From Psammoneis japonica (Eukaryota), in the NCBI GenBank assembly GCA_008632985.1, contig QPGO01000033.1, positions 434,001 through 498,000 of the forward strand: 64,000 bases of DNA, written 5' to 3'. The translations under genes were made by a program, and so were the position numbers. Shown in pieces: positions 28,467 to 64,000 of this stretch. Positions within the stretch are counted from its first letter, which is position 1, and every line of letters starts with the position of its first letter. Below the pieces are notes generated by a model. The model had not been told where the DNA came from, searched no databases, and saw only the letters and a program-made list of their open reading frames with translations.

Positions 28467-29290
28467 TTTTAACCTGGACCCGCCATGGTAACTTAGGACG
28501 CTTATTGAAGGGGAACACATCGCTGCAATGCTTTTATGAAAGTGAGATTGGAAAGAATCGTATCAAAAGAATTGTGATTGAATCTTTTTGCTTTTTCGGC
28601 TTCTCCGTTCTCCTGTGACCAACTTCCTTTTTGAATTTTTAAAATCGTGTTAGTATCAGATTAACACATTTGTCGGCGGACGGGCATGCTCCCTAATTAT
28701 TAAAGTAACGGCTTAACCTCAACGGATATTATAACGGAAAAAGAGGTATCGGATAGTCGGTCTGCCAAGCCTGTCATGCATTCTTTACCGGTTGATTGAC
28801 GTTCAACGGCATCTCTCCCACGACTGAGTGTCTCGGCCGGGCGCCACCATCCACTGGCATAGACGCAACCTGTTTGACGGGCAGACAGACGAATTGCTGT
28901 GACCGCCTCAGATTCCATTTTTTTCTTTTCACGGCACCACCATGGGCCGATCCGACGACACTGTCTTGTTAACGCCGGTGCTCGACAAGAACGTAAATCT
29001 GCCAGACACCACTCGTGCTCATGACAACAAATACAGGGAAGGTTTGTCAATGCCTTTACTCTGTGACTCATGTCTCCCTTTCTAAGACAAGCAGCCTGTC
29101 ACCACTGGCACTTTTGTTTGGCCTCTCCTTCCTCCACCTGCTGCAGCGGCATGCTTTCTGATGATGCGTCGTGCTGCTGACAGCAACTGCGACAATCGAG
29201 AATGTGTGCGTTGATGTTGTGCACTGGCCTGAGTTCGACCTTGTTGATGACAAGCCAACAAACAACCAATCAACATTGACAGGTTCAAGC

Positions 29291-32200
29291 TGACAGAAAT
29301 TGAAGGCAAATGGCAAGAATTCAAACAATGACTCCTTGCTGCTGTCTAAACAGCAGATGAGTCTCCGCTCAGAGACCGTCACAGGAGCCGAAAGACGTGC
29401 AAGTCGGCATGATCGGGCTGCTGTTGTTGTTCTTGTGAGCCTTGTGGCTCGAAAGCAAACTACATCGCGCGCGAACGCGCGGAACTAAACCACACAAAAC
29501 TGTGCACGGTAAACTAAACAGCGCGCGACATTTCGCATGCACCCAAATCCTGTTCAAATCCTGTCACTCCCCAGTTTGCTTGAGGAGTCACAGAAACAGA
29601 TTCGACTTCGGATGGAATGAAGTTCCAGAACATGAGGGGGCGGAGAAGGTCCCAGATTTGGGAGCAACCCCAATGCTTGCTGAGAATGTCAGCAGGGTTG
29701 CGGCAGCCTTCGATGAAGTGGAACTCAAGGCAACCAGAGGCAATTGCCTCATGCACACGGTGGAATGACAGTGCAGTGTGTCGCTTGTGTAACTTGGAGT
29801 GCGGGATGGTGGCACTGTCTACAACCGACTTGTTGTCACCGAACATGCAACTGACACTGCGGATCGGGACGCCAAGGCAGCGCAGGGTGATGCGCAGGTC
29901 GATGATCTGCTCGACACAAGTCCTTGCGGCAACAAATTCAGACCCGCAGGTCGCAGTCTCCATGGTGGCTTGCTTCTTAGAGAACCAATCAGCCGGGAAT
30001 TTGTTGAGGAAGTGGAGCATTCCCATGACAGAGCATCCGGTGAGCATGCAATGGCACAGGTTTGCATCGACGCAGTGGGTGGCAGTGACGAACTTGCCAA
30101 GGGGCGGTGGAGCATCCTTCGGGATCATCTCTTCTGCTTCACCGCACACGGAATGCATCCATTCACAGGCCGGAGCAGGGAGATCTGAACAGTCGGGCTC
30201 TTCCGTGCGAACGCGGAGAGCGCCGTGTCGCATCTTGGAGAGGTGCCCACAGACGCGTTTGGCACGATCCAAGTGGCCTTGACGGGGTGCAGCTCGGAAG
30301 CTAGAGAGTGACATGATGGCCGTGGTGATGTCAATTCCACCAAGAGACACTGCCCATTGGAGTGAACCAACAAGGGACTGGAACTTGTGAATGCCATCGG
30401 GCTCCAGCAGCTCGGAAGTGTCCAGTTCGGGGTGGTCACCCTTCTCCAGAGGTGACAGGGCATTGGTGGTGGGTTTCTCCCCAAACAGTCGGGTGCAGCT
30501 GTCGACCATGCGCTCGATGTACTTGTGCGGAGACAGGCACAAGGTGCCGTCGGGATCCCGGGAAAAGTCGCAACCCAGATGGAACTCAATGGGTCCCGCA
30601 CCCTTGAGCTTGAACTTGCACTTTTCCGTGAGAGTGTTGACGAAAGATTGAGGGTCCTTCACAGCAATGGCGAGGTCATCCACACAAACGGCAATGCACC
30701 CACAGTGGTCGCCGTTCCTGCGCATCCAAATGTCAGGTTCGGCGTGGCAGGGGAAGAAGCCTTCAGCTCGCAGGCAGTCGGCGAAGCGCTCGTGCCAGCG
30801 GAGACCGGAGCTGCGCAGTCCATGCAGGGCCTTGTGGATGACAAGGATGTGTCCTTCGAGTTTGCCAAATTCGGGTCCGGCCACAATGTAGAGCTTCTCC
30901 TTGGTGGTGGCTTCAAGGTGGGCATTGCCAATGTCGGTGGCCCATGTCTCCAACTCGTTGAGTTCGGCCAGGAAAATCATCAGCCGAAGGCCACGGAGGG
31001 AGACCACTCCGGAGCAGACACTGTCGACAGGTACGTCCGTGAGGTGCCCATCGGCTGCGAGCAGTGCCTTGTGGCGACCGTCGTGTTTCACGTCGCACAC
31101 CAGGTGCACTTGGATCTTCTTGTGTCCCGCAGGAGGAGTGGAAGACTCGAAGGGCCCGCAGTCATGGAAGACTTCGTATTCCTCGAGTTGGTCCATCTCG
31201 AGATTAGTTGCGTCTCCCCATTTGCGGTTGCCGTTGCGTTGGTCTAGTGACATGGCGTGTTTGCAGTTCCGGGGAACTTCATGTCCGCACTTGCAGCGAG
31301 GTGCAGTGCGGAAGGAGCGAAGCTTGGCTTGGTTGGCCATGCGAAACAGCTTCTTTTGGCACCTCGCGATGGTGCGGAACCGCTTCCAGCCATCCGTGTC
31401 GAGAAGTCCGTTCTCTCGTGCACAGATGGTGCAGGTGACGGGGTCGTCCTTGGCGATGATGGCAAGAGGCTCGGACGTGATCTCCCCACTTTCCCATTCA
31501 AGCATGATGTTGTAGCTTGAGCCTTTCCAGGTTGGGTCATGAGGCTTCAGAGGTCCTTCGTGTGACATGATGCATCGAAATTTCCAAACAGCAGTGTCTT
31601 CGTCCTCTTGCGCAATGTGATTCATGATGTCGTTGCAGGCAAGGACTTCCTCGCATTTGTCGTTGTTGACAGAGCAGATGAACTTGGTGAGCTCGGGAGA
31701 TTGCCGTTCACTTTCCATTCGTGGTCTTTGACGGCCTTGACGATGCGAGCTCTGTGGCGTTGTCCATCCTCTTGTGGCTGCATGAGGAAGGTGCGTCCGA
31801 TGATGTCTTGCGGGTCGAAAACTGGCATCTTGGGTGTCCTGATCTCCCCATCAGGAGAATCGACGGGATTGTCGTCATGGCGAGATTTGATGATGGGTTC
31901 AGGTGGCTCCCCATCAGGAGGATCAAGATGCAGGTTTCGAATGGCAGGATCGGTGGCAGCGGAGCGTACGTTGGACCGGCAGAGGATCTTCTGAGTCTCG
32001 TCAGAGAGAATCTTGAAGGTCATCTGGTGGCCGACGTGCTCAGCAATGCCAACAAAGCGTCCACGCAACTCACGGGATTCGGACGGCCAATCGGAGTCAT
32101 CGAGGTGGAAGCACACGGGTTCCCACCAGTGAAAGCGAAGCAATGGGCTGATGTCTGGGGTGGAGCCAGTGAGAGTCTCGAGGGGCGTGCGCCAGTGGAG

Positions 32201-35200
32201 ACGTGGGGATGCTGCATGGTTGAGCATGAAGCACACATGCATGAGCGCCAGCAGCCATGTGTGGGCGGGCGAACCAAAACGATCCATGACAGTGTTCGCC
32301 ATGCGCTTCACGGTCTGGTGTCGACGCTCGGCAAAGTTTTGGTGTTGCTGGTGAGGCTCACTTTGCCAGCTGGAGATGAAGAGGGCTCGTAGGATCCCGA
32401 GCACTTTGTTGCTGATCTCAACTTGAGCACGGTCGCCAATGAGTTTGGATGGGGCACCACGCTCCCGGATCTGATCCTCGAGTGTGTTGACAAACTCTTT
32501 GTCCGTCTTGGTGCCGCAGACGTCAGTGACGGTAGACTCGGTGCCAACAAACAGTTGGGCGCTGGTGCAACCAGAGTCGACGGCCGGGGTGTCGGCACAA
32601 ATGGTGTCAGTGGCGATGGGTTCGTTGCGGCGGTGCACATTAAGGGCGGGGTTGGGTGATTTGCAGGCCTTCTTGAGGTGTGCACCGGCGGGCATGCGGG
32701 CGCACTGCGTGGTGCAGTCAAAAGTGCGACGGACCGCATCGGCAGGTGGGAAGCCAAAGCAAGGCCGAAGAGACTCAAAGGGGGGGTCCTTGGGCTGCAC
32801 AGTGCGCTCTGGGGGCGGAACGTCGTCGTCCTTGGGGTCAATCGAAAGTAGATGACACTCGCAGAACACGTCGTCGTTCGGAATGAGATGATCATCGAGG
32901 GCGGACGCATGATCGGCAGACAAGGAAGCGGACATGATGGTCTCGTTGACAACGACACGATGACGGCAGTTGCCGTGTTCGTCAAATGGGTTGGCAGTGG
33001 GATCGTCCTGCAGGTCAGAGATCGAGTCGCACCACTGGTCGTCATCAGTGACAGAGTGATCGAGGACGGAAGGATCCCATGTGTCATCACCGGTGAGGAT
33101 GACATGGGGCAGGGTGTCCCATTCGGCGTCAGTGCAAGGTCACATGGCAACATGAGGCAGGCCGCCCTTGATGTCAATGGGGATGACACAGCCATCAGGA
33201 GTGGCAATGCGTTGCAAGCCGTTGGGCACCTTGACAGAGCGATCGTTGACATCCTGTTTGCACCATTCGAGCTGGCCGCAGGAATGGATGGTCTTGCCCT
33301 TGCCCGTGTGTGCGTGCTGATGGAGGATGGCGATGACGGGACCACGCTGGGTCTCAATGACGGCACCAGCGGTGACAATGGGGATGTCCACCAATTGATG
33401 GTCGTCAATGCCCTGAACGTCGACTTGGCGAGAGGTGCGTGCAATGACGCGAACGTCATCGCCAGCAATGCCGCCGTTGGCCCCACGATCAACCAGAGCA
33501 CCAGTGCGTGTGGAGCGATGAGCAGAGGCAGATTGAATGACATTGTGGTTGTTGACGCGACGGCAAGTGAGGCCGTTGAGTTCCATGTCATCAGCAGAAG
33601 CTGGTGGGGTAGAGGGAGCGGCGGATGGCCCCGGTCGACCAGCATTGGGGGCTTGGTCAGGAGACAACAGACGTTGCAGATCACCGGGTGGCAGTGGCTT
33701 GCACTTGGTGAGGTGCGCCAGGATGGGATCATCCGAAGTGGCATCCACATTTGGAGCGGGGTCACCAGAGTCAGCAGGAGTTGTGTTGGACAAGTTGACA
33801 TCACCATCACTCCCAAGGCGGTGGTCGTGAAGGTTGGCCGTAACAGACTCATGGCAGTTGCTGGCTCGCGGGTTGCGGGGAGGCGGACGAGAGTGCTCAA
33901 GGATGATCGCCTTGGAGGAATGGGGCAACGAATCCCAAATCCGTTGGTGGTCGGGAGGGAGACGTTTCCATTGGTCACCGGTGAGGCTGGGACCACGGGT
34001 GCGGGCAGCATTGGCCTGAAGGACGTCAATGTCGCTGTCAATGTCGTAGAACACATCGTCGGATGGTTCCTCGGAGTGGACGTCGTGTGCGTGTGTGGCA
34101 TGTCGGGGAGCTTGAGGTGTCGTCTTGGGTTGAAACGTGCTGTCGTGTTGAGCTGCCGCGGAGAGGAGCAAGCCACAGCATTGATCGCATGTGAGGCTCT
34201 TGCCACTCTGCGTGCGATGCTGATCAGCTTGGTTCTTGACAGCACGGAGTTCCTCGACAGGGTGTGCGGCATTCTCGAGCATGACGCGCTTCTGTCCTTC
34301 AGAGAAGTGGTCACTGGCCGGGACAAGTGCCTCGTGCTTGCGCAACTGGTCTTGCCAATGAAGGATGAATCCGTGGGTTGGACCTTTCCAAGCACCATCA
34401 CCAAGATGTGCGGTGGCAAGGTGCGTGAGCAAGGTGGAGGACTCGATGGATGCGCGGGTGGAGGCGAGCGCATGCTCGGACAAGGCGCAGTGGACGGTCT
34501 GGGCGTCAGAAGACCCCACATTTTCGCGGATGAGAGCCTTGCCCTTGTCGGTGAGAAGGATGCGTTCGAAGACGGCGAACATGTGCTTTTGCTGTTCAGC
34601 AAAGAGCAGTTTGTCTTCGGGGCTGGTCGGTTTGTACGACGAGTCTAGAATGCACTCGACGTCTTGGGCACGGGCTTGTGCCACAAGTGAGGTGTGCCAA
34701 GTGTGCCACTGCTTGTCGGATTTGAGAGCCATGAAAGCGGTGGGATCACGCTTGATGCCTCGCTTGAAGTCTCGCACCGGGTCGCGTGCCTTGGTCGGGT
34801 TGGTGACATGCGGAGGTGCGAGGGGTGAGCTGCCGATGGACACAGAAGACATGCAGTCGGGGCTGAGGTGGCAGGCAAGGAACTCGTCATGCGTGAACAA
34901 CGATGAGTCATTGGCAACGTCAAGACCTTCGTGTGCTTTGACAATGTACAGACTAACTGGAGCTGCTAACATGTTCTTGTGACCGCGGGGCAAAGGGATC
35001 ACATCAGTGCCGTTGTCGCACTCAAGCGAGTCGATTTGGGACGGCATGAACGTGAACAGCTCTTGACACGAGTCCGTGCCGTCTTGGGCCAAAGCCAAAC
35101 GAAGAGGGCTCCCAGCACCTTGGGCAAGCACGGTTCCAACAACGTGCTCGAAACCATCGGTTTGTTGCTGACGAGTGAGAACCATGGTAGACAAAAGTGG

Positions 35201-36400
35201 TGTCAGGACAAGCAATTCTTGTTGGGAAGCGAAGGCAGACTTGAAACTTGGGTGAGAACAGACTTGACTTGAAACAGACTTGACTTGAAATCTTGAACTG
35301 CCTCAAAATCAGAAGTCACCGGGTTGTGCTGTCCCGTTCGTTGTTGAGTGCTAAACTTCCCATCCGGTCCGCAGGGTTGTGCCGGCACGTCCGAACCCGC
35401 AGCCAGTGGCGCTTTGGGTTGCTTGCGAGCGGAGCAGCAGGTTGCAAACCCCTGCAGGCAAGCTGACTAGAGGTGGACAAGACCCCCGAACCGTTCTCAT
35501 TTTATGTCGGTTGGATTTCCCAATCAGGCTGGCCAGTTGACGTGGGCGTCAGGCGCTGTGGACGAACGAACAAACGCGGGAAAGCACCCTTGCCCCAACG
35601 CAGGCTGTGGTCACGGCTGCTTGCTCTCACAGTCGTCCTCGTGGACCCAGCAGAACTGTGGAGCACCAGCAGTCCGGGGTAGATCAGGCACAATGGACTC
35701 GGTGTGCTTGCAGAGTGGCAGCAAAACCGCAGTCCGAAGAGTGGGTACAAGTTCTTGGCCGTGAAGATGTGTGTGTGCGCACATGTCTTCAGCGACGAAG
35801 ATCCTTGAACATGCAGGGTTCTTGACCATCAACCAATGAATGGGTGTGTCAAGGGATGAGGATCAAGGACAGACTTGGATGTGACTGTTGATGTGTGTCT
35901 TCAGCGATCAAAGGTGGCACAATCAATCCAGATGTCCAGCGGCAAGGAGACTTGACGGTGACGTTAAAAAATCCTGCCGATGCCTGGTGTTGAATGCGCG
36001 CAGACTTGCCGATGTACGTAGAACATGCAGGGAGGTCCACGCAGAATTGAAACAGCGTCGTCGGTAAATCAACGACGACGATGGCGGTTGCTCAATGGGT
36101 TGACAATGAGCAAGACTGTTGATCTGACAGAAATTGAAGGCAAATGGCAAGAATTCAAACAACAACTCCTTGCTGCTGTCTAAACAGCAGATGAGTCTCC
36201 GCTCAGAGACCGTCACAGGAGCCGAAAGACGTGCAAGTCGGCACAATCGGGCTGCTGTTGTTGTTCTTGTGAGCCTTGTGGCTCGAAAGCAAACTGCATC
36301 ATGCGCGAACGCGCGGAACTAAAGCACACAAAACTGTGCGCGGCAAACTGAACAGCGCGCGACATTTCGTGCGCACCTGAATCCTGTTCAAATCCTGTCA
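29291..36400 (-). mobile_element. Full-length Ty1/Copia (CoDi-like) LTR retrotransposon, element 1, mutated
   Basis: 276-bp LTRs 29291-29566 and 36125-36400 (TGACAG..CTGTCA); TSD CAAGC both sides; polypurine tract at ~29567-29580; order gag, PR (LVDRGANGG), IN (SEPHQQHQNFAERR), RT (DIGNAH, CVDD), RH (NPADILSK). Confidence 0.95.
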
Positions 36401-36497
36401 CAAGCCCCAATCAACATTGACAGGTTCAAGTGCCAAACTGTTGGTGTGGTGACATGACAGGCTCCAGTGCGATTGACTGGAGTGATTGGACATTCTG

Positions 36498-36865
36498 GAC
36501 GCGTTCCAGGTCCAGGTGGGACCTCGCACCACCAAACTGTGACATCCACAGTTTTTTGAATCGCATTGCATGTCGCGCACGCACATTTCTACATGATTTT
36601 GGCCAAATTTTGCATCATTTTGTTGCACAATTGTCGGGCGATCCATTCAACAACTTTTGACATTTTTTTCTTCTGTGCCATTCTTGAGTGTCCTGAGAAT
36701 GGCACAGGGCAGGCGCATTGTCCAAAACTTTGAGTGCGAACAGAGACATGTGTGCTGCAAACTCGGCCATTTGTTTGATGTTGAAGACAAATGTGTCCAT
36801 CAACCGGAGTATGAAGCACAGAGCTCGCACGTGGAATTCTGCGGGGCAAATGTCACAAAAAGTCC
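36498..36865 (-). mobile_element. MITE copy, subfamily B, split by Copia element 2 (remainder at 54199-54219)
   Basis: Starts GACGCGTTCCAGGTCCAGGTGGGAC; the other TIR is completed by cacccaggactggagcccgtc after the Copia; TSD TCTG at 36494-36497 and 54220-54223. Confidence 0.88.
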
Positions 36866-39800
36866 TGACAGGATTTGAACAAGATTTTAGCTCATCACAC
36901 ATGATTGTGTGTGCTCTCAGTTCCATGCACGTCATGTGATGCAGTTTGCTTTCGAGCCACATGGCTCACAAGAACAACAACAGCAGCACCGATGTCACGA
37001 CACCAGTCTTTCGGCTCCTGTGACGGTCTCTGCACGGAGACTCATCTGCCATTTAGACAGCAGCAAGGAGTTGTTGTTTTCTTTCACCCAGTCATCTTCA
37101 TTTTCTGTCAGATTGACAGTCTTGCTCTTTGTCACCCATTGAGCATTCATCATTGTCATCGAGAAATTTTTGACGACCCGCACCGTTGGCGGTGGAAGCG
37201 TGCATCTGCCTTCTTCACTGCTGGGTGCTGGATTAAATCCACATGTTTGGATTCATCCGACACCTCCCATCGTTGGATGCATTTGTTCAACGGATGTTTG
37301 TTTGGCCAGGAATTTCTGAATTCTCAGACATCCAAGATTCCGGATTCCTCGCAGCAGATCCTGCCAATGCTTCCACATGCGTTCATGTGCACACGACACA
37401 AATCCCTGACTCTGGCTCTGCTCTGTGCATGCCAAGTCTACCGCCTCGTATCTGCGCCAGATTGCTGGTCTTCTCCAGTCCAGCAGGGTCCACGAGGACA
37501 ACTGTGAGAGGAAGCAATTTGTGATCACAGCCTGCGTTGGGGCGAGGGTGCATTTCCCACGTTTGTTCGTCCCTCCACAGCGCCAAATTTGGCCGGCCTG
37601 ATTGGGTTGTCCAACCGATGTAAAATGAGAATGGTTCGGAGGTCTTGTCCACCTCTGGCCAGCTTGTCAGCAGGGGTTTTTAACCCGTCACTCCACTCTC
37701 AAGCAACCCAAAGCATCGCCAGCTGTGGGTTCGGACGTGCCAGCACAACTCTGTGGACCGGACAGGAAGCTTGGCACTTGACCATGAACGGGACATCACA
37801 GCCCGGCGGCTTCTGACTGTCAAGACAGTCCAAGACATCAAGTCAAGATTCAAGTCAAGTTTCAAGTTGTTTCAAGCTCACCCTCCGACTCTGGCTGGTT
37901 CCAACATCAGCCTGGTTGCAACATGGTTCTCACCAGGCAACAACAAATCGATGGCCTCGAGCACATTCTAGGCACTGTTCTGAGTCAAGCCGCAGACAGT
38001 CCATTGCGCTCCGCTCTCAACGTTGATGGAACCGATTCGCATCAGGACCTTTTCACTTTTACTCCGTTGCAATTGGATGCCCTTGTGCACAATGACAGAA
38101 CCAATCAAATGCCTTTGCCACATGGTTGCAAAGCACAGACAGCTGTGTTGATTGGCCTGTACATGGCAAAAGCGCGTGGTGGTGCTGATGTCAGCAATGA
38201 CCCTCAGTTGTTCACACAAGAGGAGTTCACCAACTGTCGTCTCAGTCCTGAGAATGTGGTGTCCCTCTCCATGGGTGCAGCACCATCTGCTCCCACTCCT
38301 GGCTTGTTGCCACCCAAACCACGTGATCCCGTGCGTGACTTTAAACAAGGCATCAAATGTGACCCACTTGCCTTCGCGCTTCTCAAGTCCGACAAACAGT
38401 GGCACACATGGCACACCTCCATCATCGCACAGGCCCGCTCCCAAGACGTCGCACGCATTCTTGACCCGACGCACAAGCCCTCTGCAGCTGAGGACAAGGC
38501 CCTGTTTGCTGAACAACAGAAGTGCATGTTTGCCGCATTCTAATGGATCTTGAAGAATGACAAAGGCAAGGCTCTTGTTCGTCAACATGTCGGCTCCTCT
38601 GATGCTCTCAAGCAGTGCATCGTGACCTTTCCAAGCATGCCCTTGCTTCTGCTCGTGCATCCCTGGAGTCCTCAAACCTTCTCACGTACCTCGCCACTGC
38701 TCGCCTTGGTGATGGCACCTGGAAAGGTTCCACTCATGCCTTCATGCTCCACTGGCAGGACCAGCTCCGCAAGTGTGAAGCTCTCATCCCGGGTGCGGAC
38801 CATTTTTCTGCTGGCCAGAAATGTGTCATGCTTGAGAACGCCACACATCCTGCCGAGGAACTCCGTTCGGTGAAGAATCAGGCCGATCAGTTCCGCGCGC
38901 AGAATGGAAAGGGACCATCTTACGAAGAGCACTGTGGACTCCTGCTTTCCGCTGCAGCACAGTGCGACAGCACGTTCGCCCCCAAGACAGCTCCTCACGC
39001 TCCTCACCGTGCCGTCTACGAACACGACCTGGTCCCTGACGACCCTGATGACGATGTGTTCTTCGACATCGACAGTGATGTTGACGTCATGCAAGCTTGT
39101 GCTGTGCAAACTCGCGGCAATTCCCTCACCAAGGAACAGTGGCATCGCATTCCGCCGGACCACCAGCGCATTTGGGACACCTTGCCCCAGTCCACCAAGG
39201 CCATCATTCTTGGCTCGCGCACCGCCCACACGGGCAACTGCCATGACTTGATGGCGGTCAACCTGCACGACCTCCGCATTGGCAGTGATGGCGACATCAA
39301 CTTGTCTGCCAACACTCACAATCTTGCATCAGCCTCGGCACAATCCGACGCTGCAGCCGATGCAGCCGATGCCAACCCCATCCTGGCTCATCTCACCAGG
39401 CACAAGCCTCTGCCAGCACCCGGCGACTTGCAACGTCTCCTGGCACCTGAACGGCCTCCTTCCGCCCATTCTGGCAAGAAACCACCTGGATCTGCACCTT
39501 CCGTCCACTCCAACGCGAAGCCCAATGACACTGACATTGAGATCAACGGCCATGAATGCCGTCGCATTGACAACCACAATGTCATCTGCTCTGCCTTGAC
39601 CCACAAGTCAACTTGCAAAGGTGCTCTCGTGGATCGTGGTGCAAACGGTGGTGTCGCTGGTGATGATGTTCGTGTCATTGCCCGCACTGGTTGCCAGGTT
39701 GACGTCCAAGGCATCGATGATCATCAACCAGTCGACACCCCCATTGTCGCTGCTGGTGGTGTCATCCGCACGCAACACGGCCCTGCCATTGCCATCCTTC

Positions 39801-42800: not shown

Positions 42801-43266
42801 ACCGAGGAGCCCGACCATTCGGACCTCCCCAAGCCCATGTGCGATTGGGCTCAATCCATGCATGGGGAGGTGGAAGAGCTGCTCCCACAAGATGTGCCCG
42901 AGCCGCTTGGCAAGTTCATCACCACCACGCACTGCGGTCGATGCAAACTTGTTCCATTGCATGCTCGCTGGACGCTCTGTCACCGGCATCCTCCATTTCC
43001 TCAACAAGTTTCCGGCTGATTGGTTCTCTGAGAAACAAGCAACAGTCGAGACTGCCATGCATGGATCCGAGTTTGTTGCTGCAAGGACATGTGTCGAGCA
43101 GATCATTGATCGGCGCATCACTTTGTGTTGCCTTGGCGTTCCCATTCGTGAAACATGTTGCACATTTGGGGACAACAAGTCTGTTGTGGACAGTGCCACC
43201 ATCCCGCACTCCAAGTTGCACAAGCGACACACCGCCCTCTCATTCCATCGTGTGCGTGAGGCGATT

Positions 43267-53754: not shown

Positions 53755-55431
53755 GATTGCCTCCAGATTCCTCGAGTTTCATTTTGTCGAAGGCTCCCAC
53801 AACCCAGCTGACATCCTCAGCAAGCATTGGGGTCACTCCCAAGTCTGGAACCTCCTTCATCCTCTGGTGTTTTGGAACTTCGACCCCGAGGCTTTCAACC
53901 AATCCAACTTTGAATCTGTCGCTGTTGACCCCTCGAGCAAACTGGGGAGTGACAGGATTCGAACAAGATTTTGGTTTGTCACACATGATTGTGTGTGCTC
54001 TCAGTTCTGCGCGCGTCGTGCGATGCAGTTTGCTTTCAAGCCACACGGCTCACAAGAACAATGACAGCAGCGCTGACATCACCACACCAGTCTTTCGGCT
54101 CCTGTGATGGTCTCTGCACGGAGACTCATCGCCATTTAGACAGCAGCAAGGAGTTGTTGTTTTCTTCCACCCAGTCATCTTCATTTTCTGTCAAGTCCCA
54201 CCCAGGACTGGAGCCCGTCTCTGTTGTTGTGGCAAGCATTGTCGTCATTGGACATGGTCATTTTTGCTGTGCTTGTTTCATTGTGGTCGTGCATGCAACT
54301 GATGGCACTTTTTGTTTTGGTGCAGTTGCATCATGGTCACCCCAGCTTTTTTGTGACAAGAAGCACAGAATGAGATGGGGACACGGAAAGAACTGATGCA
54401 ATGCACGGGGGGTTCTGTGAAAACCTGCAGTGCACCACTTCACTTGTGTGCATCCTCCATCAGCACAATGACAACAGGATGCAGATGGAGTGTTGAAATG
54501 GCGATGGCGAGTTCAGCGACAAGTGTTGCAGACATGCCAACAAGGATGGGAGCACGACAGCTGGCATTCAACACATGCGGGGCCAGTGCGACAGGGTGGC
54601 TGGCATTCAACACTGCACAACAGGGTGGACAGCATTTGAAAGCTGGAGCACCAGCACTTGACATGATGTGGCAGAGAGCAGCACTCAACAGCCGCCAGTG
54701 GCGGCATTTAACGTGATGCGATGGATGGCATTCAATGCAATGCAGCAGCTGGTGTTTGACAGCCAGTGTTTGATGCAATGCAATGGCTGGAGCTCCCCAA
54801 CAGTTTGCTGCATCAGAGGGCGCAACACAGCGATCTTGCTTTGTCTTTTCATTGTGATTTTTGTCTCTTTGACAGATGAAATTTTTGTGGTTTCAAACCT
54901 CATCAGTTGTGTGGCTGGCAAAAAAATTCAATCTATGACAGTCAATTTTTTCAACTGTGGAGACATCTTTTCATCTGCAAGAACAAACCCCGACTGTGCA
55001 AACGTCCCCCTCTTTTCCCATTTGGCATGTGCCTTTGTTCAATGTGACAGCTGACAATCAACATCATTGTCAATTTTCACATCATGTGACAGTTTTGCAA
55101 TTTAAAGGGATGAACACAATGAACCCAGTCAACTCTTTGCAATCAACCAAGACGCATCGCTGCAGCTTTTTAACATTTTTTGTCAATCAATGCTCAATCA
55201 ATGCCAAGTTGATGCTGCAGTCCTGGTCGTCCTACATTTCCAATTTGCTCACACACTGGATTCTCATTTCCTCCGCTTCCGTCACTGTCTTCCTGGCCAG
55301 CTTCGTCTTCCTCCTCATCTTCTCTGCCACCTGGTGTCTCCGTTGCTTCATTGTCCTCCTCGTCGTCACTAGAAAGTTCCAATGTTGCCTGCGTTCTCGT
55401 CTCCGTTTTTGCTGGCTCTTGAGTGGTTCTC

Positions 55432-55827
55432 GATGGGTTCCAGTCCCAGGTGGGACTTTTTGTGACATTGGGCCCGCAGAATTCTACGTGCGAGCTCCGC
55501 AGCAAAATTGTTGAGCAATGTACATGTGAATGATCGCCAACAGAAAAAGAGGCAATTTTGCAAACGCATCTCCTCCTCCACACTTGAAGTGCATTCTTTA
55601 CAGTGTGCCCGGGTGCATTCTTTAGACATTAAAGAACACACCCAGCGCATTTTCATTGACGTGAGTGCAGATGACAGAAAGCCTTTGGCTTCGCAAAACA
55701 GGAAGTGTGGAACAATTTTTTACAACAGAACATGCAGAAATGTACGTGCGAAACATGCGACGGATGACAAAAAACAATTGTGTCACAGTTCAGCAGTGCG
55801 AGGTCCCACCTGGAGCTGGAACACGTC
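55432..55827 (+). mobile_element. MITE copy, subfamily A
   Basis: GATGGGTTCCAGTCCCAGGTGGGAC...GTCCCACCTGGAGCTGGAACACGTC; flanks TCTC/TCTT (one mismatch). Confidence 0.87.
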
Positions 55828-55829
55828 TC

Positions 55830-56860
55830 TTGCCTTTTTTCCCTTTTCTTCGCTCTCCTTTTTCTTTTCGTCTGTGTGCCACATGTCGAAATGCACACCG
55901 TGCTCTCTCGCCCTGTCTTCCTTTGCCTCCTTTGGCAAATCGTTGAAGCGCACTGTTCCTTCATCCTTCCAAGAGTCACGCTGTTGCGACAGGTCCGTGT
56001 GCAATGGAGCCGGTTTTTTCTCTTCGCTCCCTTCCTCATCTAACTCCTGCATCTTCTTGTGCTCCCAAACCTTCCAGCAGTTTTCCATCATCAACAGGGC
56101 CAGTGCCTTGTCGCTTGCAGCAGCCAGATCTGTGGCCTTGGTGCTTCCGGACTCTGCCATCCTCCTCCACATTGCAGTGCTCTTCGTGAATTTCAGGACA
56201 TTGTCGTAGAACCATGCGCGTGCCTCTCTGTCCTTTCGCTTCTCCATCACAATTGTGTCCACTGTCCCATCCTCCCAAGTCGCAATGAACTCTTCCTCAA
56301 TGTCAGCTTCATCCTGTTTCCGCTTTTTTGTGGATCTCTTCTTCCCTGCTTCTTTCTTTTTTTTTTCTTGGATTTCCTCTGCTTGTTTTTCTGTTGCAAC
56401 GACTTTAGAAAAACGAGCAATTCATCAGTGGCACCACTTTCTATTTTCGCTTCGGAAATGCTCCACTCCTCCCCACTTGCCACTCATCGCACTCCTCATT
56501 GTTGTCTGACACACGGTGTTTCTTTTCACGTTGATCGCATTGAGCACGCCTTTTTTAGCCCAGTCCTCCCATGATCCCGCCCACCCACGCTTGCCGAACT
56601 TGCCATCTGCTGTGTTTTTGCACATTGGCCGTGACACCTTGCCACCACTCGCCATGTCCGCCTTCATGAGGAATTTCGCCTTTGGGAACAGCTCTCTCCG
56701 TGCCACCTCTTCCACCTCTCTCTTCAGTGACTTGTGATCTGCCGCAGCCCCCGTCTGCTGCAATGCCGCCACAAGCCTCGGGCTGTGGGGCACTCCCTCT
56801 GCCCCTGCAGCATCCGTCTTAGCCGCTTTCTTCCTCCTTCCCATCGCCCTCGACTCATTG
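55830..56860 (-). pseudogene. Decayed, probably transposon-associated ORF of unknown family
   Basis: Coherent fragments in successive frames (RRELFPKAKF..AINVKRN, REARAWFYDNVLKF..SDKALALLMMENCW); TpA-depleted; bracketed by MITEs. Confidence 0.45.
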
Positions 56861-56927
56861 TGTCGCTGTCAGTTCCTCCTGTCTGCAGCTGTGTGGTGCA
56901 ACAGCTCTTCTGAGGAAAATTGTCTTT

Positions 56928-57324
56928 GATGGGTTCCAGTCCCAGGTGGGACTCCGTGTGACATTGGGCCCGCAGAATTCTGTGTGCGAGCTCCGCAGCA
57001 AATTTGTGCTGCAATGAAAATGTGGATGATCGCCAACAGAAAAAGAGGCAATTTTACGAACGCATCTCCTCCTTCATGCTTGGAGCACATCATTGACAGT
57101 TTGCCCGGGTGCGTTCTTCAGACATTGAAGAACACACCCAGCGCACTTTCATTCTCACAAATGTTGAAAATGGAAAGCCTTTGGCTTCGCAAAACAGGGA
57201 GCATGAAACAATTTCGTAGAATGTCACATGTAGAAATGTGCGCGCGCAACATGCGATGCGATCCAAAAAACTGTTGATGTCACAGTTCAGCAGTGCGAGG
57301 TCCCACCTGGAGCTGGAATGCATC
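56928..57324 (+). mobile_element. MITE copy, subfamily A
   Basis: Same TIRs; TSD CTTT at 56924-56927 and 57325-57328. Confidence 0.9.
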
Positions 57325-57599
57325 CTTTGCAAAATTTCAAACCTGTTCCCAACACTTTATGGCGATGCTGCTTCCCCATCCTCATGCATTGTCAACTGTC
57401 AAATCTTTCCCAAATCATCACAATTGGTGATTTTTGTCATTTGACTTTGAAAACCACACACTTGGTCATGTTCATTTCAGCTCAAGTGACCAGTTGTTCA
57501 ATTTGAATTGCACAATTAAATGTCAATGACAATTTTGACATGCAACTGGATCACTGCATTTGAAACTTTCAATTGTGCAGAATCACACATGAACATTGA

Positions 57600-59300
57600 T
57601 CACTGCAGGTCAGAAGTTCACATCCATGCTCCATGCGCACTCCAACAGAAACACGGTGCCAAAAACGATCTCCAGTCCAATTCTTCCATCGCATCCTCCT
57701 CTAAATGGACAATGACAAAATCGCTGCACCTCCCCTCGTGTGAGTGATCAGTCATGCGATCAAACGCGCTGGTCACCTCACTGACACACCCAATGAAACG
57801 CTCGACGTGATTGCAACGAATCGTTTCCTTTTTCATTTTTAGACATTGTCTCTGTAGTCTCCTGTCCTTTTCATTGTCACAACAGCCGAAGGACCCCCCA
57901 CCCAAGCCCATTTTCTCGATTTTTTCCAAGATCCAACCATTGACCTTCCCAGGTGTCAATTCAAAGAACTCCAATTCATCACACCGCCACAACCTGCAAG
58001 GTGCGTCTCGCTTTGCTTGTCGCTCAAACAAATGCGCTGGCTTCCTTGCATCAAACACGACGCCCTTTCGGTCCACAACCAGTTTGTGCACATCTCCTGA
58101 ACCGTTGTCCAATGCGAGCAGTCCGCAATTCCTGCTTTGGTCCATTCCACATGTGGGCAAGCTGAGGGTTGATTCCCTGCTTGACGAATCAACATCTTGC
58201 TTGTCAATCACCAGACGAAGCTCGCCCTCCCTTGATCCAGCTGCAAACTCATCAAACAGCTCATCGCTTGGGTCGTTTGACCAACCGCTTGCCGCGTGCT
58301 GTTCTCCCTGCCTCTCCGGGTGCGTTGCTAGCAAGCTCCAATGCTGGCGTGTTTTGTGAGCATTCCTTGCTCACTTGATGATCAAACTTGAATGCTCGTC
58401 CTTGTCGTGAATGGAGAACATGGCCTGTGTGGCGTGCATGCATTCCCTCACTTCCCTGGTCCATTCATGCATGTTCTCATGCACCCAGGCTCATGATGTT
58501 GTATTTGGTTTCCCACAGTTCCTTCCATTTCTCCTTGATGGTCCGTTCATCTCTTTCCATGATCATCAAATGAATCGCCCAAATTTCTTTGACATCTGCG
58601 GGCTCTCCGCCCAAGTCACCGCGCGCAACTTTGCTGCACGAGCCAATTAAACTGCACATGTCCATGCAGTCTCTTCACAAGTGGGGGTTGTTGGATGGTT
58701 CCTTCCTGCCGGTGCCCAACCATCGACCTGGCTCTTTTTTGGCTGTGCTGCAGTCCGCCTCCATCTTTTCCTCTTTTGCTTCTTGTCCCATGCTCTCCAC
58801 CTCAGCCAGTTTCGTCCAGCAGTCATCAGGCCAGCGTGCCAGCAACAAATCGTTCTGGACAATGGAAGCCATGGTGCAACTGCAGGTCACTCGCATGGCT
58901 GTTGTGGCACAACGTGTGTTGTTTTTGATGCACTGACACTGCCCCAATGGTGGAACTGACGGACGTGGAACAACGCGTGCCTTTTCACTGCGCGTGCAAG
59001 TTGAAGAATTGACAGTGAGTGGCGGTCACAAAATGTTCCAAAGACTGTGTTCCAACTCACTCTTCCCTTTCCGTTGGCAATTTTTGCATTCTCATTCACC
59101 ATGCAACACGAAAGTGTTCAATTGTCCCAACGCATTCTTTTGACAGGCAACTGCAAAAGCATCCATCAATGCAAAAAAATCAATGATCACCGTTTTCGTG
59201 CCAATTTCGTGTCTTGTTTCCCGCCAACCCTCGCAACACACATGCCTTCCACATGACCAAACCTCAGCCGCAACCATTCGCACAATTGTTCTCGCCGGTC
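57600..59300 (-). pseudogene. Decayed coding remnant in the repeat block, unassigned
   Basis: Chain of frameshifted minus-strand ORFs with protein-like composition and almost no Tyr; no motif recognised. Confidence 0.35.
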
Positions 59301-59331
59301 CTTTGCTGCTTCTTTCCACCAAAACACCAAA

Positions 59332-61000
59332 ATGGAACTTCCTCAGTCCAAAAACAAGGGTGAAGAAGCAACCACCTGTCCCTGTTGCCATCGCTCCTTC
59401 CAGCACATGCTCGGTCACTTAAATCGCAATCCACAATGTCTCTCTGTCGCTTGCGAATTGTCCAACTTGGCATCACAAGGTGCACCGGGACCCAACTTGT
59501 CACCCGATGCTTGTGTCAAAGTGGTTGGAAGGTGGAGCAACTCTGGGAATGCAAATTTGCATTCAATGGCTTCTCGGGGACTCGATTCTTCCTCGTCATC
59601 CAACAACACCTCCACACATGGATTGAGACAATCAAGATGAGGGGCCTCCATTTCCAATGCCCGCATGGCTGGTTCTGCCCCTTCGTTTGAACCACCTTCT
59701 GATGCTCCATGGTCACCAGCCTTCGAAGACAACATGTCCCCTCTCTCCTCCATTTGTGGCCCGGACGACAGTTGCCTCATGTCACTGGAGATGCTTTCAG
59801 ACAAAAGCAGATGCGTTCCAGCCCTGGGTGGGACTCCGTGTGACATTGGGCCCGTGGAATTCATGTGCAAGCTCCGTAGTACGAGAATTTAATCAATGGA
59901 CACATTTGTCTTCAACATCAAATGAACGGCCAAGTTTGTGGTGCAATTGTGCCTCTCACCACTCAACGTTTTTGCAATTGCACCTGCCCCACGCGATTCT
60001 TAAGACAGTGTGGAATCGCGCTGTGACAAAAAATGTCAAAAGTTTTTGGACGGATCGCTCAATGAGTGTGCCGTAAAATGACACAAAATGTCAAAAAATC
60101 ACGTAGAATTCTACGTGCGCGACATGCGACGAGATTCAAAAAACCATCGATGTCACAGTTCAGCAGTGCGAGGTCCCACCTAGACCTGGAACGCAACAGC
60201 AGCAACACAGAAGCAAACTCTTTCGCCGTGCTGCCGGACGTCACCATGGATGTTCCAGACAGCAATGTAACGGATGACACGCAAGCATCCCAAGGGAACA
60301 TTTCCTCTCTGTTGGATGACAGCGGATTGGGCAACATCTGCCAACACCCCGCCGAGGCAGCCTTTGCCGGCTTGTCGTCATTGAGCAACCTGAACGGGGC
60401 CTGTGTGGAGTTGAGCAAGCTGACAGATGACTGTAGAGCGCCGCTCCACCTGTGCAACGACATTGTGGGATTTGTCGAAAGACATTGCGGCACCACATTC
60501 AAGTTTGGGACCAAAACACCTCGTCACAGCAAGCTGATGGAAACTCTTTCCAAATCGTTCCCCGGACCTGAACAAGAGATGATGCCGGTCAATCTGGAAA
60601 CTCCAAGTGGCGAACAGGGAGAGAAAACTGCAATGGCTCCAAGATGGAACTTCCAAGAGGTGTGGGAATCACACATGCTTGACACTTGCACGTGGGCTGA
60701 CAAAAGCAATCTTGCAGACACACACAATCCTTTCAGCATGTGCGTTGCCAAGGGCTCGGATGACAAATGTGTCTTGCCTGGAGAGTGGTGCAGGAGCACG
60801 CACTTGGCTAGAGTCAAGGATCCGCTGAAACAGTTCTTGGAATGTTTGACAGTTTGTGCAGACAAGACGGGACAGACAGCTTCGATGGGGTCTTCTTGCG
60901 GAGAACCTGTGACAGTGACCTCTGTGCATGTTGCCTTCAAACAGTGGCACAACAAAGCCAAGTGGAGAGTTCTTGGATGCATTCCTGATGTCGTTTTCAC
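59332..61000 (+). pseudogene. Decayed Plavaka-like transposase fragment interrupted by a MITE
   Basis: CPCCHRSF..LGHLNRNPQC zinc-finger-like start, then PGEWC, VCADKTG, GEPVTVT, WRVLGCIPD; restoring C to Y gives WY, YADKT and WRxLGYIP as I recall them from Plavaka-type proteins. Confidence 0.55.
59810..60197 (+). mobile_element. MITE copy, subfamily B
   Basis: GATGCGTTCCAGCCCTGGGTGGGAC...GTCCCACCTAGACCTGGAACGCAAC; TSD AGCA at 59806-59809 and 60198-60201. Confidence 0.9.
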
Positions 61001-61023
61001 AAAGCTGAGTCAAGTCAAGAATG

Positions 61024-62919
61024 TCAGCGACCATGGCCTTGATTTTGGAAGACTCTTTCGCGTCGAAGTTTGAAAAGCAAAAGGGCAGGAATGCACACAC
61101 GAAGGCAACCAAAGTGCCCTTTGTAAAGAGAGTTTGCATGACGGGCGACAGAGAGTTCGTCTGAGTGGTGATCAAGGTCAGGAGGACACTCGGCTCTCAC
61201 ACGAGATGCGGCAGTTGGGTCGCTGATGGGGGCTTTGTTTGAGAAGATGTGCCAGTTTTCCCCAAGGTTGTCAGCAAGGTAAAAGTCGGCAGCGGAATGG
61301 TGAAGCACATGCTCCGTGTCAGTTGCCTTGTCAATGATGTGAGGGCATGACACATGAGCAGCAACTTTGTCTGAGGTGACAGATTGACACTTGGACGGGT
61401 CAAAGCGCTGTCGGAGTGTGGACTTGTCCAACCACGACATGTCGTTGGGGTCCAGTGGGGGAGACGACGCAACCGGGCCTTTCGTGGTGCCAACGTGTGG
61501 AGAGGCTGGCAGCTGGGTGGGAGGACCTTCCAGTGAAGAGGAAGGTTTGTGGGAATCCATGGTTTCCAACAGAGTGGGAAGGTTGGCGGTGAGAGTGCGG
61601 TTTGCCTCCCGTGATGACGGCAGGTCGGCAGACGCAGGAGGACGTGCCTTGGCAGAGCGTGATGCAGTCTTTGGCTTCTTGTTGGGGACGGTCAAGGAAG
61701 GCTCTCATGCGGCGAACATGAACAATGGGACAAAACATGGATGTGTGAGAAGACGGATGCACAAGAAACATGCGGCAACAAGGAGGGGGGGGGGGCACGT
61801 GCCATCGTACAAACAGGTGCCGTCTTTGCGGGTCCTCCCAATTTTGCGTTTGGTTTTGGATTGACACTCTCATTTGTTGTCATCATCCATGCAGTGGGCC
61901 CTCTGATCACGCATTCTGCATCGAAGGATTGTGAGCAACTTGCTGTGCTTGGGTCGCATGCCGGGTTGTTCCTCAGGACACCGCTTCCCAAATTTGTGGT
62001 TCAATGTGGAATTCATTTTTTCTTCACACGCCTCCCGACGGGCAAGGGAATCACCAGCCATTGTCACTTTGTTCTTTGTGTTGCCGATTTGGTCCGGAGT
62101 GAGGCATTCCTTGACATTGTCTGCCTGAGAGCCCGGGTCGTTAGAATCGCACGGCACAAGAAAGCTGTTGACGAACAGGCACCACTCCTTTTGCGATTGG
62201 ACATGGCAAAAAATCTGCATGAACCAGCAGTCGAAGTCATTTTGTTTGCACTGAACGTGACGCGTCACGATTTCGGTGACAAAAAATGCACCATGAAGGT
62301 CTTGTGCACGGTCGTCGATCAGTTTTTTGAGATTGTCTTCCTTTAGAAACTGGAAACAAGGCTTGCCGGAAACGGGATCATTTGGGTCATCACCGGCGAC
62401 AATCGTGTGGACAAATTCTGCCATGGCTTTGATGTTGCGGTGAAGATTCATGCGGTGCTCTTCTTGTTGAACTGTCTCTCCGGGTGTTTTGGAGAAACAG
62501 AGAGCTTCATCCAAATTTTGATGACGAAGGCAGTGTTGACCTTTCAGCGAGTGGGATTTCTTCAGGGACCAACCACGAGTCTTGATGCAAGACCAAACAT
62601 CAGGGCATCCAAGAGTTTTCCTGACAATGTTGTTGGCGCGGATGACTTCCGCGACATGTGGAATTCGACGTAACTTTGGCTTGTGGCAAAGGAAGGGAAG
62701 AGCAAGAAATTGCAGAGAGGGAGTCCATTTCGTCGACTCCAAAAACTGCTTTTTGGATGCACGTGTTGAAGTCATGCTTTTGAGCTTGGGACCAAACAAT
62801 TCCATTCCAAAACCATTGGCAAAATGTTCCATGTCATCAAAATCACATTCATCAGGAAATTGGAAGGAAGGATCAGGGTCGACCTCGTCGTGAGACGGGG
62901 TGAAGTCGTTGACCGCCAT
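61024..62919 (-). pseudogene. Decayed ORF remnants, probably transposon-associated
   Basis: 349-aa and 223-aa minus-strand ORFs, nearly Tyr-free, in TpA-depleted DNA; no motif recognised. Confidence 0.35.
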
Positions 62920-64000
62920 GGCAAGAGGTCAGTTGTGATTCGCGTAGAAAGCACGTGCATGACAACAGCACATGCTCAGGTGGAAAGCAGTTTGGGGAGA
63001 GGATGCACTGTTGTAAATTGCGCAGATGATTGCGCATGTAGAATGAGCACCCGATGCAGGGCAGAGACCCATGCACAGAAATTCCGGGAGGCACTGGAAA
63101 AATGACACTGGAAATGTGCATGGGGGAGACTGGAGCATGCCGAACAGCAGAGGACATGCCAGTCAACACGGTGGGGTGTGTGTGATGTGGAGATGTTAAA
63201 AACCAAAATCAAAGATGTCGGTTCAATGCAAATGCAATGTTGAGATCAAATGGAAATTTACAAAATCCAACAAAAGTGAAAATCGAATTAAATTGTTGAG
63301 AATGATCAAACACAAACAGATGACAAATGTTGGCATAAAACGGACTTAATGAGTTGAGTGTGTTGTTTCAATTTAAACGCGAAAACAACAATCAAAGGTG
63401 CAATGAAGTTGACTGCAATTGGCAACATTCGCACATGGAAAATTGAAAACCACTGCATTGCCGCCTCTGATGTGGATGACTTCTTAGATTTTACAACAGA
63501 AGCCAAGGGAACAAATGTGTCCTCTGACCCAAGCTGTCAAAGGCAATGACAAAAATGGAAGTGACCCTTCAGTTGCGCGCACGACCACAATGAAGAAGCT
63601 CAGCAAAACGACTTTTGATGATGACGATGACGACAACACCCACCATGAAAATGCAACACTTGGTTGCTCTTCCATGTGCAGCACAACAAACAAATGATGC
63701 CAGCAATGAAATTCAATGGACAAAGCCAAATCAACGAAGCACAAACGATGCAGCAAATGGCGCACGATCAAAAACCACAACACTGCACAAAACGACTTCA
63801 CACAACAATGACAAAACCTGCCACAACAACATCAGAGGCAAATTTTCATGAATTGTCTTGAGGTCTGATTGTCACCCAAGTCATGAAGACCTCCCCCGCT
63901 TGCTTTCTGTGGCTGCCCGAAATCATTCTACACAAATCTTCCCATCAACCAAGTTGCTCACTCGCGATGTTGCGTTTGATCTCCATGACCGGCTCCTTGA

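Follow-up and report, generated by a model that had tools for sequence, protein, structure and literature searches.

Repeat-induced point mutation (RIP) of ascomycete fungi converts C:G to T:A, mostly CpA to TpA, through cytosine-methyltransferase-like enzymes and yields AT-rich, TpA-rich DNA, while vertebrate APOBEC3 deaminates C to U in minus-strand complementary DNA (cDNA) before integration and leaves strand-asymmetric G to A changes that are common to both long terminal repeats (LTRs) of an element. To our knowledge, the point-mutation defences against mobile DNA that were known before 2026, i.e., RIP, APOBEC and the decay of 5-methylcytosine (5mC), were cytosine-based. Here we analyse a stretch of 64,000 nucleotides from the diatom Psammoneis japonica (assembly GCA_008632985.1, contig QPGO01000033.1, positions 434,001 to 498,000; hereafter the window, with positions counted from its first base), in which transposable elements have lost most of their 5'-TA-3' dinucleotides (TpA) by A:T to G:C transitions and the genes between them have not.

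The closest described case comes from the chlorarachniophyte alga Bigelowiella natans, in which integrated viral DNA undergoes a hypermutation that affects TpA only (Mettrop et al., bioRxiv 10.64898/2026.01.13.699255, 2026). According to this preprint, 231 of the 302 nuclear single-nucleotide mutations in mutation-accumulation lines fell into two integrated viral regions, 230 of these 231 were A to G or T to C, all on TpA according to the authors, and only part of the lines were affected, at ∼6e-7 mutations per site per generation. The larger viral region is described there as single-copy and silent, the TpA-poor coding sequences of B. natans as enriched in reverse-transcriptase and DDE Pfam families, and an ADAT2-like DNA adenine deaminase is proposed as the agent (Mettrop et al., 2026). 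The main text of the preprint makes no mention of diatoms and holds no analysis of flanking context. An initial annotation of the window, made from the letters alone, had stated that no description of such a signature was known to it, a statement that the 2026 preprint overturns. No report of the TpA signature in a diatom was found by a full-text literature search and by term look-ups in diatom papers.

TpA Depletion in the Repeat Blocks

A TpA-specific A:T to G:C process has acted on the integrated mobile DNA of the window, far above background, and it stops at the borders of genes. The window is made up of two TA-poor blocks (1–3943 and ∼29090–64000) with a block of genes between them. The repeat blocks hold 277 TpA in 38,854 bases (7.1 per kb), where 2,221 are expected from base composition; the genic block (3944–28790), which serves as an internal control, holds 1,021 (41.1 per kb), with 1,747 expected. 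When both strands are symmetrised, the observed/expected ratio (o/e) of TA is 0.12 in repeats vs. 0.58 in genes, that of CG 0.73 vs. 0.96, and that of TG and CA 1.57 vs. 1.16, and the remaining 12 dinucleotides (including AA, AT, and TC) have repeat/genic ratios between 0.92 and 1.12 (TC/GA 0.95, AA/TT 1.02, AG/CT 0.94). The initial annotation had described TA as rare in the repeats and normal in the intervening genes and had asked for a sliding-window count; run over the window in steps of 2 kb, this count gave a TpA o/e of 0.04–0.26 for 1–4000 and 30001–64000, with a sole exception of 0.40 at 50001–52000, and of 0.40–0.75 from 4001 to 30000, so that the description holds. It had also placed the excess of changes at TpA, and indeed, beyond a mild loss of CG, only TA is lost, and AA, TC and AT are unaffected. 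Block by block, TA o/e in the transposons ranges from 0.04 to 0.27, against 0.58 over 25 kb of genes, and G+C is higher in the repeats (0.50–0.59 vs. 0.43–0.50).

The left border of the depletion is abrupt. It lies at 3943/3944, a few bases from a promoter region rich in TA, and the density jumps there from a single TA over the whole of 3000–3943 to 17 in 200 bases. On the right, the transition is gradual and takes up ∼300 bases (about 28790–29090). With the loss of TpA the stop triplets TAA and TAG have been nearly erased from the repeats (TAA 6.0 per kb vs. 18.1 in genes, TAG 4.2 vs. 16.5), and the dead transposons therefore display long false open reading frames (ORFs) on both strands. Of the 49 ORFs of at least 200 amino acids, 37 fall in the repeat region, where they are long, overlap, and occupy several frames on both strands, and most of the long ones at 29000–64000 match no Pfam family. 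Such false ORFs in dead transposons are a hazard for annotation.

Polarity of the Change

The direction of the change can be read from the tyrosine codons of four retroelements: Copia 1 (29291–36400, minus strand), a truncated Copia 2 (38300–43266, plus strand), and two Gypsy elements on the minus strand, an outer one (43267–53754) that is split by an inner one (45490–50765). A change of TAY to TGY reads as Cys, and a change of TAY to CAY as His. All eight Tyr-site motifs quoted by the initial annotation could be located, i.e., GNAHL (30915–30929), ALHGL (30816–30830) and CVDD (30675–30686) on the minus strand of Copia 1, GNACL (42097–42111), ALCGL (42196–42210) and HVDD (42340–42351) on the plus strand of Copia 2, and HLDD (47960–47971) and HSDD (51028–51039) on the minus strand of the Gypsy elements. 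The scarcity of Tyr that it had noticed in a Copia ORF of 734 amino acids was confirmed as well (0.5% Tyr and 5.2% Cys, compared with 4.2 and 1.2% in 60 homologues). This ORF was aligned to the 60 homologues, taken from public metagenomes and genomes, which gave 27 columns of conserved Tyr; in these, Copia 1 reads Cys 17 times, His three times, Tyr four times, Phe twice, and Trp once. Other conserved residues are retained (Pro 25/25, Gly 38/39, Trp 13/13, Leu 44/46). A Tyr to Arg replacement, which takes a double change, occurs in none of the 27 columns (there is one Arg at the Tyr positions of P0004), indicating that a TpA site is mutated once and is then no longer a target.

The other copies give the same picture. 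Against homologue P0002, Copia 1 reads 24 Cys, eight His and four Tyr at 42 Tyr positions, and Copia 2 reads 14 Cys, ten His and no Tyr at 41; against homologue P0198, the inner Gypsy reads 15 Cys, 16 His and one Tyr at 37 positions and the outer Gypsy 18 Cys, 11 His and four Tyr at 36. A control sequence (L001) reads Tyr at 35 of the 42 Tyr positions of P0002, and Cys or His at none. Both outcomes, Cys by A to G and His by T to C on the sense strand, are thus found in every copy. A sense-strand bias was hinted at by the conserved columns of Copia 1 (17 Cys to three His), but was not upheld by the other copies.

Eighty Copia relatives from metagenomes have a median TpA o/e of 0.68, which indicates that the families are not TA-poor by nature. 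The loss of TpA is derived, from ancestors that had both TpA and Tyr. The initial annotation had considered that the elements might lack TpA and carry Cys or His from the start; this is not so, as the TA-normal relatives read Tyr. Among the 80 relatives, one carries the full signature and one a partial signature. The first is a metagenome contig of 2,766 bases (L065; 71–75% DNA identity to the window copies) with a TpA o/e of 0.02, a CpG o/e of 0.44, 0.1% Tyr, and CVDD instead of YVDD, in which 37 Tyr positions read mostly His (15 His, eight Cys, one Tyr). The second (L067) is intermediate, with a TpA o/e of 0.33 and 15 Tyr, six His and four Cys at 30 positions. The metagenomes were scanned by peptide patterns, one of them with [YF], which disfavour mutated copies, so that one to two of 80 is a lower bound. 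Most relatives lack the process, and at least one environmental sequence shares it with the window.

Differences Between Copies, Rate and Sequence Context

Over 5,183 aligned positions the inner and the outer Gypsy have 150 adjacent mismatch pairs, where ∼40 are expected, and 121 of the 150 oppose CA to TG. A TG in one copy and a CA in the other indicates an ancestral TA that was changed independently in each copy. The sites fall into 121 TG/CA, 68 TA/mutated, 35 TA/TA, 37 CG/TG, and 36 CG/CA, and 75 differences over 5,220 columns lie outside these classes; transversions make up 21 of the 337 difference events. The changes are almost solely A to G and T to C transitions, as also seen in the few replacements of Tyr other than by Cys or His. 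A model that assumes equal TG and CA outcomes and independent lineages since the common Gypsy ancestor estimates ∼315 ancestral TpA, of which ∼0.88 were mutated per lineage, vs. 0.7% at other sites; under this model TpA would be mutated at roughly 300 times the rate of other sites.

Measured against the genic density, retention of TpA depends on the flanking bases and decreases from TTAA (0.64) through CTAA/TTAG (0.42), GTAG/CTAC (0.30), CTAG (0.23) and GTAC (0.13) to the lowest values in ATAC/GTAT (0.02) and ATAT (0.01). The values of the two strands combine in a roughly multiplicative way, which implies that the mutated A favours T over C, C over G and G over A as its 3' neighbour. A within-site test of the neighbours at 216 discordant sites points weakly in the same direction (T:A 27:20, C:A 13:6, C:G 32:23); since the choice of discordant sites biases this test toward 1:1, it is the contexts of the residual TpA that carry the claim. 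Both strands are mutated site by site and about equally. Mutation in strand-coordinated bouts can be ruled out, as the number of runs of TG or CA outcomes matches expectation in both Gypsy copies (inner 82 vs. 83.0 expected, outer 74 vs. 73.7).

A Candidate Chemistry

In the transposons of the window 5'-TA-3' has been converted to TG or CA, i.e., A:T to G:C at TpA, on either strand. Conversion followed integration and proceeded to near saturation, genes a few bases away stayed untouched, and the destruction of Tyr codons and of TAA and TAG stops kills the proteins of the element. In the mechanism that we propose, an ADAT2/TadA-like deaminase would turn the adenine into hypoxanthine, a base that pairs with C; homology, small RNA or chromatin might guide this enzyme to DNA that is silenced or foreign. 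The natural tRNA target of ADAT2 and TadA is likewise 5'-U-A (U33-A34), and a DNA adenine deaminase of this class is our leading guess for the enzyme, at somewhat less than even odds. With regard to guidance, homology or small RNA would suit the abrupt left border and the many copies of the elements, and a cue from chromatin or "foreignness" would suit the single-copy depth of the right flank (see below) together with the single-copy target reported from B. natans. The process of the window is probably the same as the TpA hypermutation described in the B. natans preprint. The initial annotation had spoken of a repeat-restricted process: the targeting of mobile DNA stands, but a restriction to repeats is not shown, and the target in B. 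natans is single-copy according to the preprint.

Because TpA is self-complementary, a chemistry at adenine is indistinguishable in these data from one at thymine, T to C on one strand being the same as A to G on the other. A TET/JBP-type enzyme could thus produce 5-hydroxymethyluracil (5hmU) or 5-formyluracil at TpA in place, which would mispair with G and give T to C. 5-Formyluracil does mispair, and dinoflagellates carry 5hmU at TpA; it has also been reported at TpC in these organisms, and the unchanged TC/GA of the repeats (ratio 0.95) is a mild argument against a modification of the dinoflagellate type. We know of no modified thymine of the 5hmU type in diatoms, and we consider the thymine chemistry unlikely.

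Timing Relative to Integration

An element integrates with two identical LTRs, and differences between them at TpA-derived sites consequently indicate mutation in the chromosome. Self-comparison and inspection of the ends identified three complete insertions with target-site duplications: Copia 1 (LTRs 29291–29566 and 36125–36400; 5-bp duplication CAAGC at 29286–29290 and 36401–36405), the outer Gypsy (LTRs 43267–43698 and 53324–53754; GATT at 43263–43266 and 53755–58), and the inner Gypsy (LTRs 45490–45921 and 50334–50765; CACG at 45486–45489 and 50766–50769). The LTRs of Copia 1 have 12 differences, namely four TG vs. CA, three TA vs. TG or CA, four of CpG type, and one transversion. In an alignment of the four Gypsy LTRs, 21 inferred ancestral TpA sites vary in outcome; the outer LTRs differ from each other at 12 of them, ten of which are TG vs. 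CA, and the inner LTRs at six. The loss of TpA thus took place on integrated DNA in three elements with intact target-site duplications. Units with terminal inverted repeats (TIRs) that resemble miniature inverted-repeat transposable elements (MITEs), and that have no need of reverse transcription, are depleted of TpA as well.

Alternatively, A to G changes might have been fixed before integration, by an ADAR- or ADAT-like A-to-I editor acting on RNA or by a single-stranded DNA deaminase acting on cDNA, with reverse transcription passing the change on and the chromosomal copy staying stable from then on. A-to-I editors do prefer a 5' U or T, and a 5' U preference of ADAR is stated in the Discussion of the B. 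natans preprint (Mettrop et al., 2026). Also the inner Gypsy would suit such a scenario: its LTRs agree at 14 mutated sites and conflict as TG/CA at three, indicating that most of its TpA loss predates its integration, so that either mutated copies could still be mobilised (in trans) or part of the mutagenesis happened on RNA or cDNA. Furthermore, an age gradient between the two Gypsy elements is not seen, the older outer element keeping more TpA (43 sites, o/e 0.27) than the inner one (25 sites, o/e 0.21). On the other hand, editing before integration does not account for the TG vs. CA conflicts between LTRs (ten in the outer Gypsy, four in Copia 1), for the equal mutation of both strands without strand runs (82 vs. 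83 expected), or for the effect on the MITE-like TIR elements and the flank of single-copy depth, and the mutations of B. natans are reported in the preprint to arise in integrated DNA. An RNA editor should moreover change A to G on the sense strand only, but Cys and His are found in every copy. Editing before integration may contribute; it cannot explain everything, and as an account of the signature we regard it as distinctly improbable.

The inner Gypsy has the more similar LTRs (96.6% identity, 91% in the outer element) and yet is more depleted of TpA than the outer Gypsy that surrounds it. One patch of the outer Gypsy (51300–51960) retains most of its TpA (∼38 TA in 660 bases; o/e 0.77 in 51501–52000), and in the corresponding stretch of the inner copy 29 of these TpA have been changed. 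The patch might have been shielded locally, or restored later by conversion from a copy that had escaped mutation. Rather than clock-like, the process seems to be episodic or to be excluded in places.

Reads, Copy Number and the Weaker Alternatives

The stretch is contained in one public sample with four listed runs, none of them entered as RNA. Run X1 was obtained from the same sample as the assembly and may even be the data from which the assembly was made, and no platform is recorded for it. The contigs built from it contain 0.70 of the sampled words and TA-poor sequence, and further copies among them read TA, or the opposite one of TG and CA, at the same sites; 533 of their 608 variable places are transitions. 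Of the 40 best-supported Copia differences between the window copy and X1, 29 are interchanges among TA, TG, CA and CG, and 13 have TG in the window copy vs. CG in the X1 contigs; at four of the best-supported differences other copies still read TA. In agreement with what the initial annotation had expected from reads, X1 contigs and assembly concur in the TA-poor sequence, and this argues against an assembly artefact, short of independent proof.

X1 depth is ∼56 in the genes (contig at 24001–26668, single copy), and the summed depth of 5,500–138,000 at 29.3–44 kb indicates that the families there exist in very many copies; judged by depth, repeats are present in hundreds to thousands of copies. 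This high-copy DNA is TA-poor, and so is a flank at single-copy depth, i.e., the transition zone (28790–29290) next to Copia 1. It looks single-copy, has six TA in ∼500 bases and, from 29000 onward, 20–22 TG and CA per 200 bases, and is covered at 28974–29266 by an X1 contig of depth 63.

The suggestion of the initial annotation that a polymerase resembling DNA polymerase eta might act by error-prone patch repair in heterochromatin finds some backing in the A to G changes that this polymerase makes at WA motifs (W, A or T) in somatic hypermutation, TpA being one of them. A WA mutator should however deplete ApA as well, and ApA is intact (AA/TT 1.02), AG/CT is not raised (0.94), and ∼88% of the sites are saturated, with next to no change elsewhere; we therefore disfavour the suggestion and think it very unlikely to be right. 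The weakest alternative, that there is no mutator and the families are TA-poor by nature or selection, or that sequencing or assembly goes wrong at a modified base, finds some footing in the mildly low TpA everywhere (genic o/e 0.58) and in a read platform that is not on record, but is scarcely credible and largely refuted already by relatives with normal TpA and Tyr, a catalytic YxDD that here reads C/HxDD, copies that conflict as TG vs. CA, a border that all but abuts a promoter region rich in TA, and read-derived contigs that are TA-poor too and in which further copies read TA at these sites.

Weight of the Evidence

Several points speak against conversion of TpA by an adenine deaminase on integrated DNA. 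The analysis covers one 64-kb window of one P. japonica genome, and the genic TpA density and a simple model underlie the estimates of context and rate. The ratio of Cys to His varies from copy to copy without discernible rule (24:8, 14:10, 15:16, and 18:11 in the window copies, 8:15 in L065). The Pfam search found no deaminase among the genes of the window, where the initial annotation, too, had seen no responsible enzyme. To these points have to be added the origin of run X1, the large agreement between the LTRs of the inner Gypsy, the higher TpA content of the older Gypsy and the patch that escaped. Nevertheless, the core of the initial annotation, an A:T to G:C mutator that acts at TpA of mobile DNA and spares genes, is supported by polarity, specificity and reads. 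We assign a probability of roughly 0.78 to the explanation as a whole, i.e., conversion of TpA to TG or CA on integrated transposons by the process known from B. natans, with deamination as the most likely chemistry.

CpG Decay as a Second Process

The same DNA also undergoes decay of CpG to TpG or CpA, which adds to the pool of TG and CA. The Gypsy copies have 73 CG/TG and CG/CA differences over 5.2 kb, the polarity in the four-LTR alignment is from CG to TG or CA, and in Copia 1 five of 32 conserved Arg are read as Cys, His or Gln. Double hits from TA to CG were ruled out as a source of the CG differences by the lack of Tyr to Arg changes in the 27 conserved Tyr columns and by the same polarity. 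Decay of this kind fits methylated transposons, and in Thalassiosira rotula 84% of transposon CpG are given as methylated in one report (PMC11842555). Six Copia relatives (L005, L009, L010, L022, L036, and L057) have a CpG o/e of 0.12–0.24 with high TG/CA and a TpA of 0.47–0.53. The existence of CpG-depleted relatives with ordinary TpA indicates that the two processes are separable.

Organization of the Window

The unclassified repeat block at 1–3943 has a TA o/e of 0.04 (10 TA), with CG at 0.34, TG at 1.83, and CA at 2.04. It is the most eroded and most CpG-poor block, contains short tandem duplications (403–570 and 2487–2653), and probably predates all other repeats of the window. In a self-comparison pieces of it match the repeats at 55466–55810, 59831–60089, and 36643–36803, and none of its 14 ORFs has a Pfam family. 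The genic block that follows (TA o/e 0.58, CG o/e 0.96) encodes an adhesin-like protein (Ephrin_rec_like), a DGAT (DAGAT), an HSP70, a carotenoid oxygenase (RPE65), a PhyH protein, an LRR protein, and a proteasome alpha subunit, as judged by Pfam. The closest named proteins of the carotenoid oxygenase are from Thalassiosira sp. (67%) and Mediolabrus comicus (62%), which places the diatom near Thalassiosirales. A contig of a second run (X2) skips 93 bases with GT..AG ends (25621–25715) in the gene of the proteasome alpha subunit (25126–25926), and the skipped intron indicates that X2 is probably an RNA run; X2 has no cover on 29337–44000 and was not used as evidence of expression.

Copia 1 (RVT_2, E = 4e-23) has a TA o/e of 0.12. 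About 24 bases of its left flank (29264–29290, ending in GGTTCAAG) recur at 36407–36430, past the right duplication; Copia 1 may have inserted into a repeat or into a tandem arrangement. Unclassified repeat fragments follow (36402–38300; TA o/e 0.10), which in the self-comparison match 53950–54193, 59896–60194 and LTR fragments. Copia 2 (RVT_2, E = 3e-17; TA o/e 0.05) is ∼77% identical to Copia 1, with tblastn cover of 40019–43269. Pfam places the Copia reverse transcriptases at 29514–31718 (minus strand) and 41866–43344 (plus strand) and the reverse transcriptase/RNase H and integrase of Gypsy at 43654–49159 (minus strand). The outer Gypsy matches rve and Integrase_H2C2, and the inner Gypsy, nested in it, RVT_1, RNase H, and rve.

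The remainder (53755–64000; TA o/e 0.09–0.10) consists of unclassified repeats with three MITE-like units, and a Pfam family was found in none of its 17 ORFs. The units (55432–55827, 56928–57324, and 59807–60200) have terminal inverted repeats of 25–28 nucleotides, ∼395 bp apart, with the consensus GAYGSGTTCCAGYCC..GGTGGGAC. They retain seven, three, and eight TA, respectively, and disagree with each other at sites that read TG in one and CA in another. The second unit has a 4-bp flanking duplication (CTTT) and the first a match of three out of four, and relatives occur as fragments at 1500–1880 and 36480–36815. Among 38 ORFs from the unclassified blocks and the region upstream of Copia, Pfam found no transposase family and one sub-threshold match to GAF. 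The class labels that had been given to the repeats consequently stand for Copia and Gypsy (Pfam) and for the MITEs (TIRs), and that of DNA-transposon remnants is unverified.

Significance and Comparison with Known Systems

The signature is not categorically new, but it is described here from a second major lineage, with far deeper erosion and across classes of transposons. It represents a rare kind of genome defence whose sole other report is from an unrelated alga. Diatoms are among the main primary producers of the ocean, and the occurrence in a diatom turns the curiosity of a single species into a candidate for a widespread system, whose enzyme could be found by contrasting diatoms with and without the mark. 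It is tempting to speculate that diatoms and chlorarachniophytes share a guided defence by DNA adenine deamination, a functional mirror of RIP, that would recognise new or repeated DNA by homology, small RNA or a chromatin mark and remove its TpA within the chromosome; we advance this tentatively, with more doubt than confidence. If true, A-editing of DNA would be an old and widespread immune principle in eukaryotes of the SAR group (stramenopiles, alveolates, and Rhizaria), and its enzyme would be a natural DNA adenine base editor of interest to genome editing. On the practical side, the TpA process distorts dating by LTR divergence and binning by G+C.

Window and B. natans have in common that A to G and T to C changes are confined to TpA in foreign DNA of the chromosome while the rest of the genome is normal, and that the long-term mark is a depletion of TpA with an enrichment of CpA and TpG; the window passes the cut-offs that the preprint gives for B. 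natans (Rho TpA ≤ 0.43, Rho CpA+TpG ≥ 1.52). The two cases differ in lineage (a stramenopile here, a rhizarian there), in their targets, which are multi-copy LTR elements, MITE-like units and unclassified repeats in the window and single-copy insertions of giant viruses and virophages in the preprint, and in the degree of erosion, with an o/e of 0.04–0.27, near saturation, compared with 0.45 in the viral region of B. natans. The rate in B. natans was determined in real time, whereas in the window it is known only as the relative estimate of ∼300-fold. Beyond the main text of the preprint, the window adds the order of 3' neighbours, the proof from LTR pairs and the co-occurring decay of CpG.

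Like RIP, the process causes dinucleotide-specific transitions on both strands of chromosomal transposons, inactivates their coding capacity and has sharp edges at genes. Its direction is nevertheless opposite, as TpA is destroyed (o/e 0.12), CpA and TpG rise to 1.57 and G+C increases, a change of which the cytosine-methyltransferase-like enzymes of RIP are incapable. The decay of 5mC, present in the window as a second process, is unable to remove TpA. APOBEC3 resembles it as a hypermutation of deaminase type that leaves dead copies of retroelements; in the window, however, the change is A:T to G:C, on both strands, and after integration. The A-to-I deaminases (ADAT2/3, TadA, the ADARs, and evolved TadA base editors) agree with it in that A is read as G and a 5' U or T is favoured, and those acting on tRNA or double-stranded RNA differ in their substrate, which here is chromosomal DNA. 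ADARs are metazoan enzymes that prefer a 3' G, unlike the order T > C > G > A found in the window.

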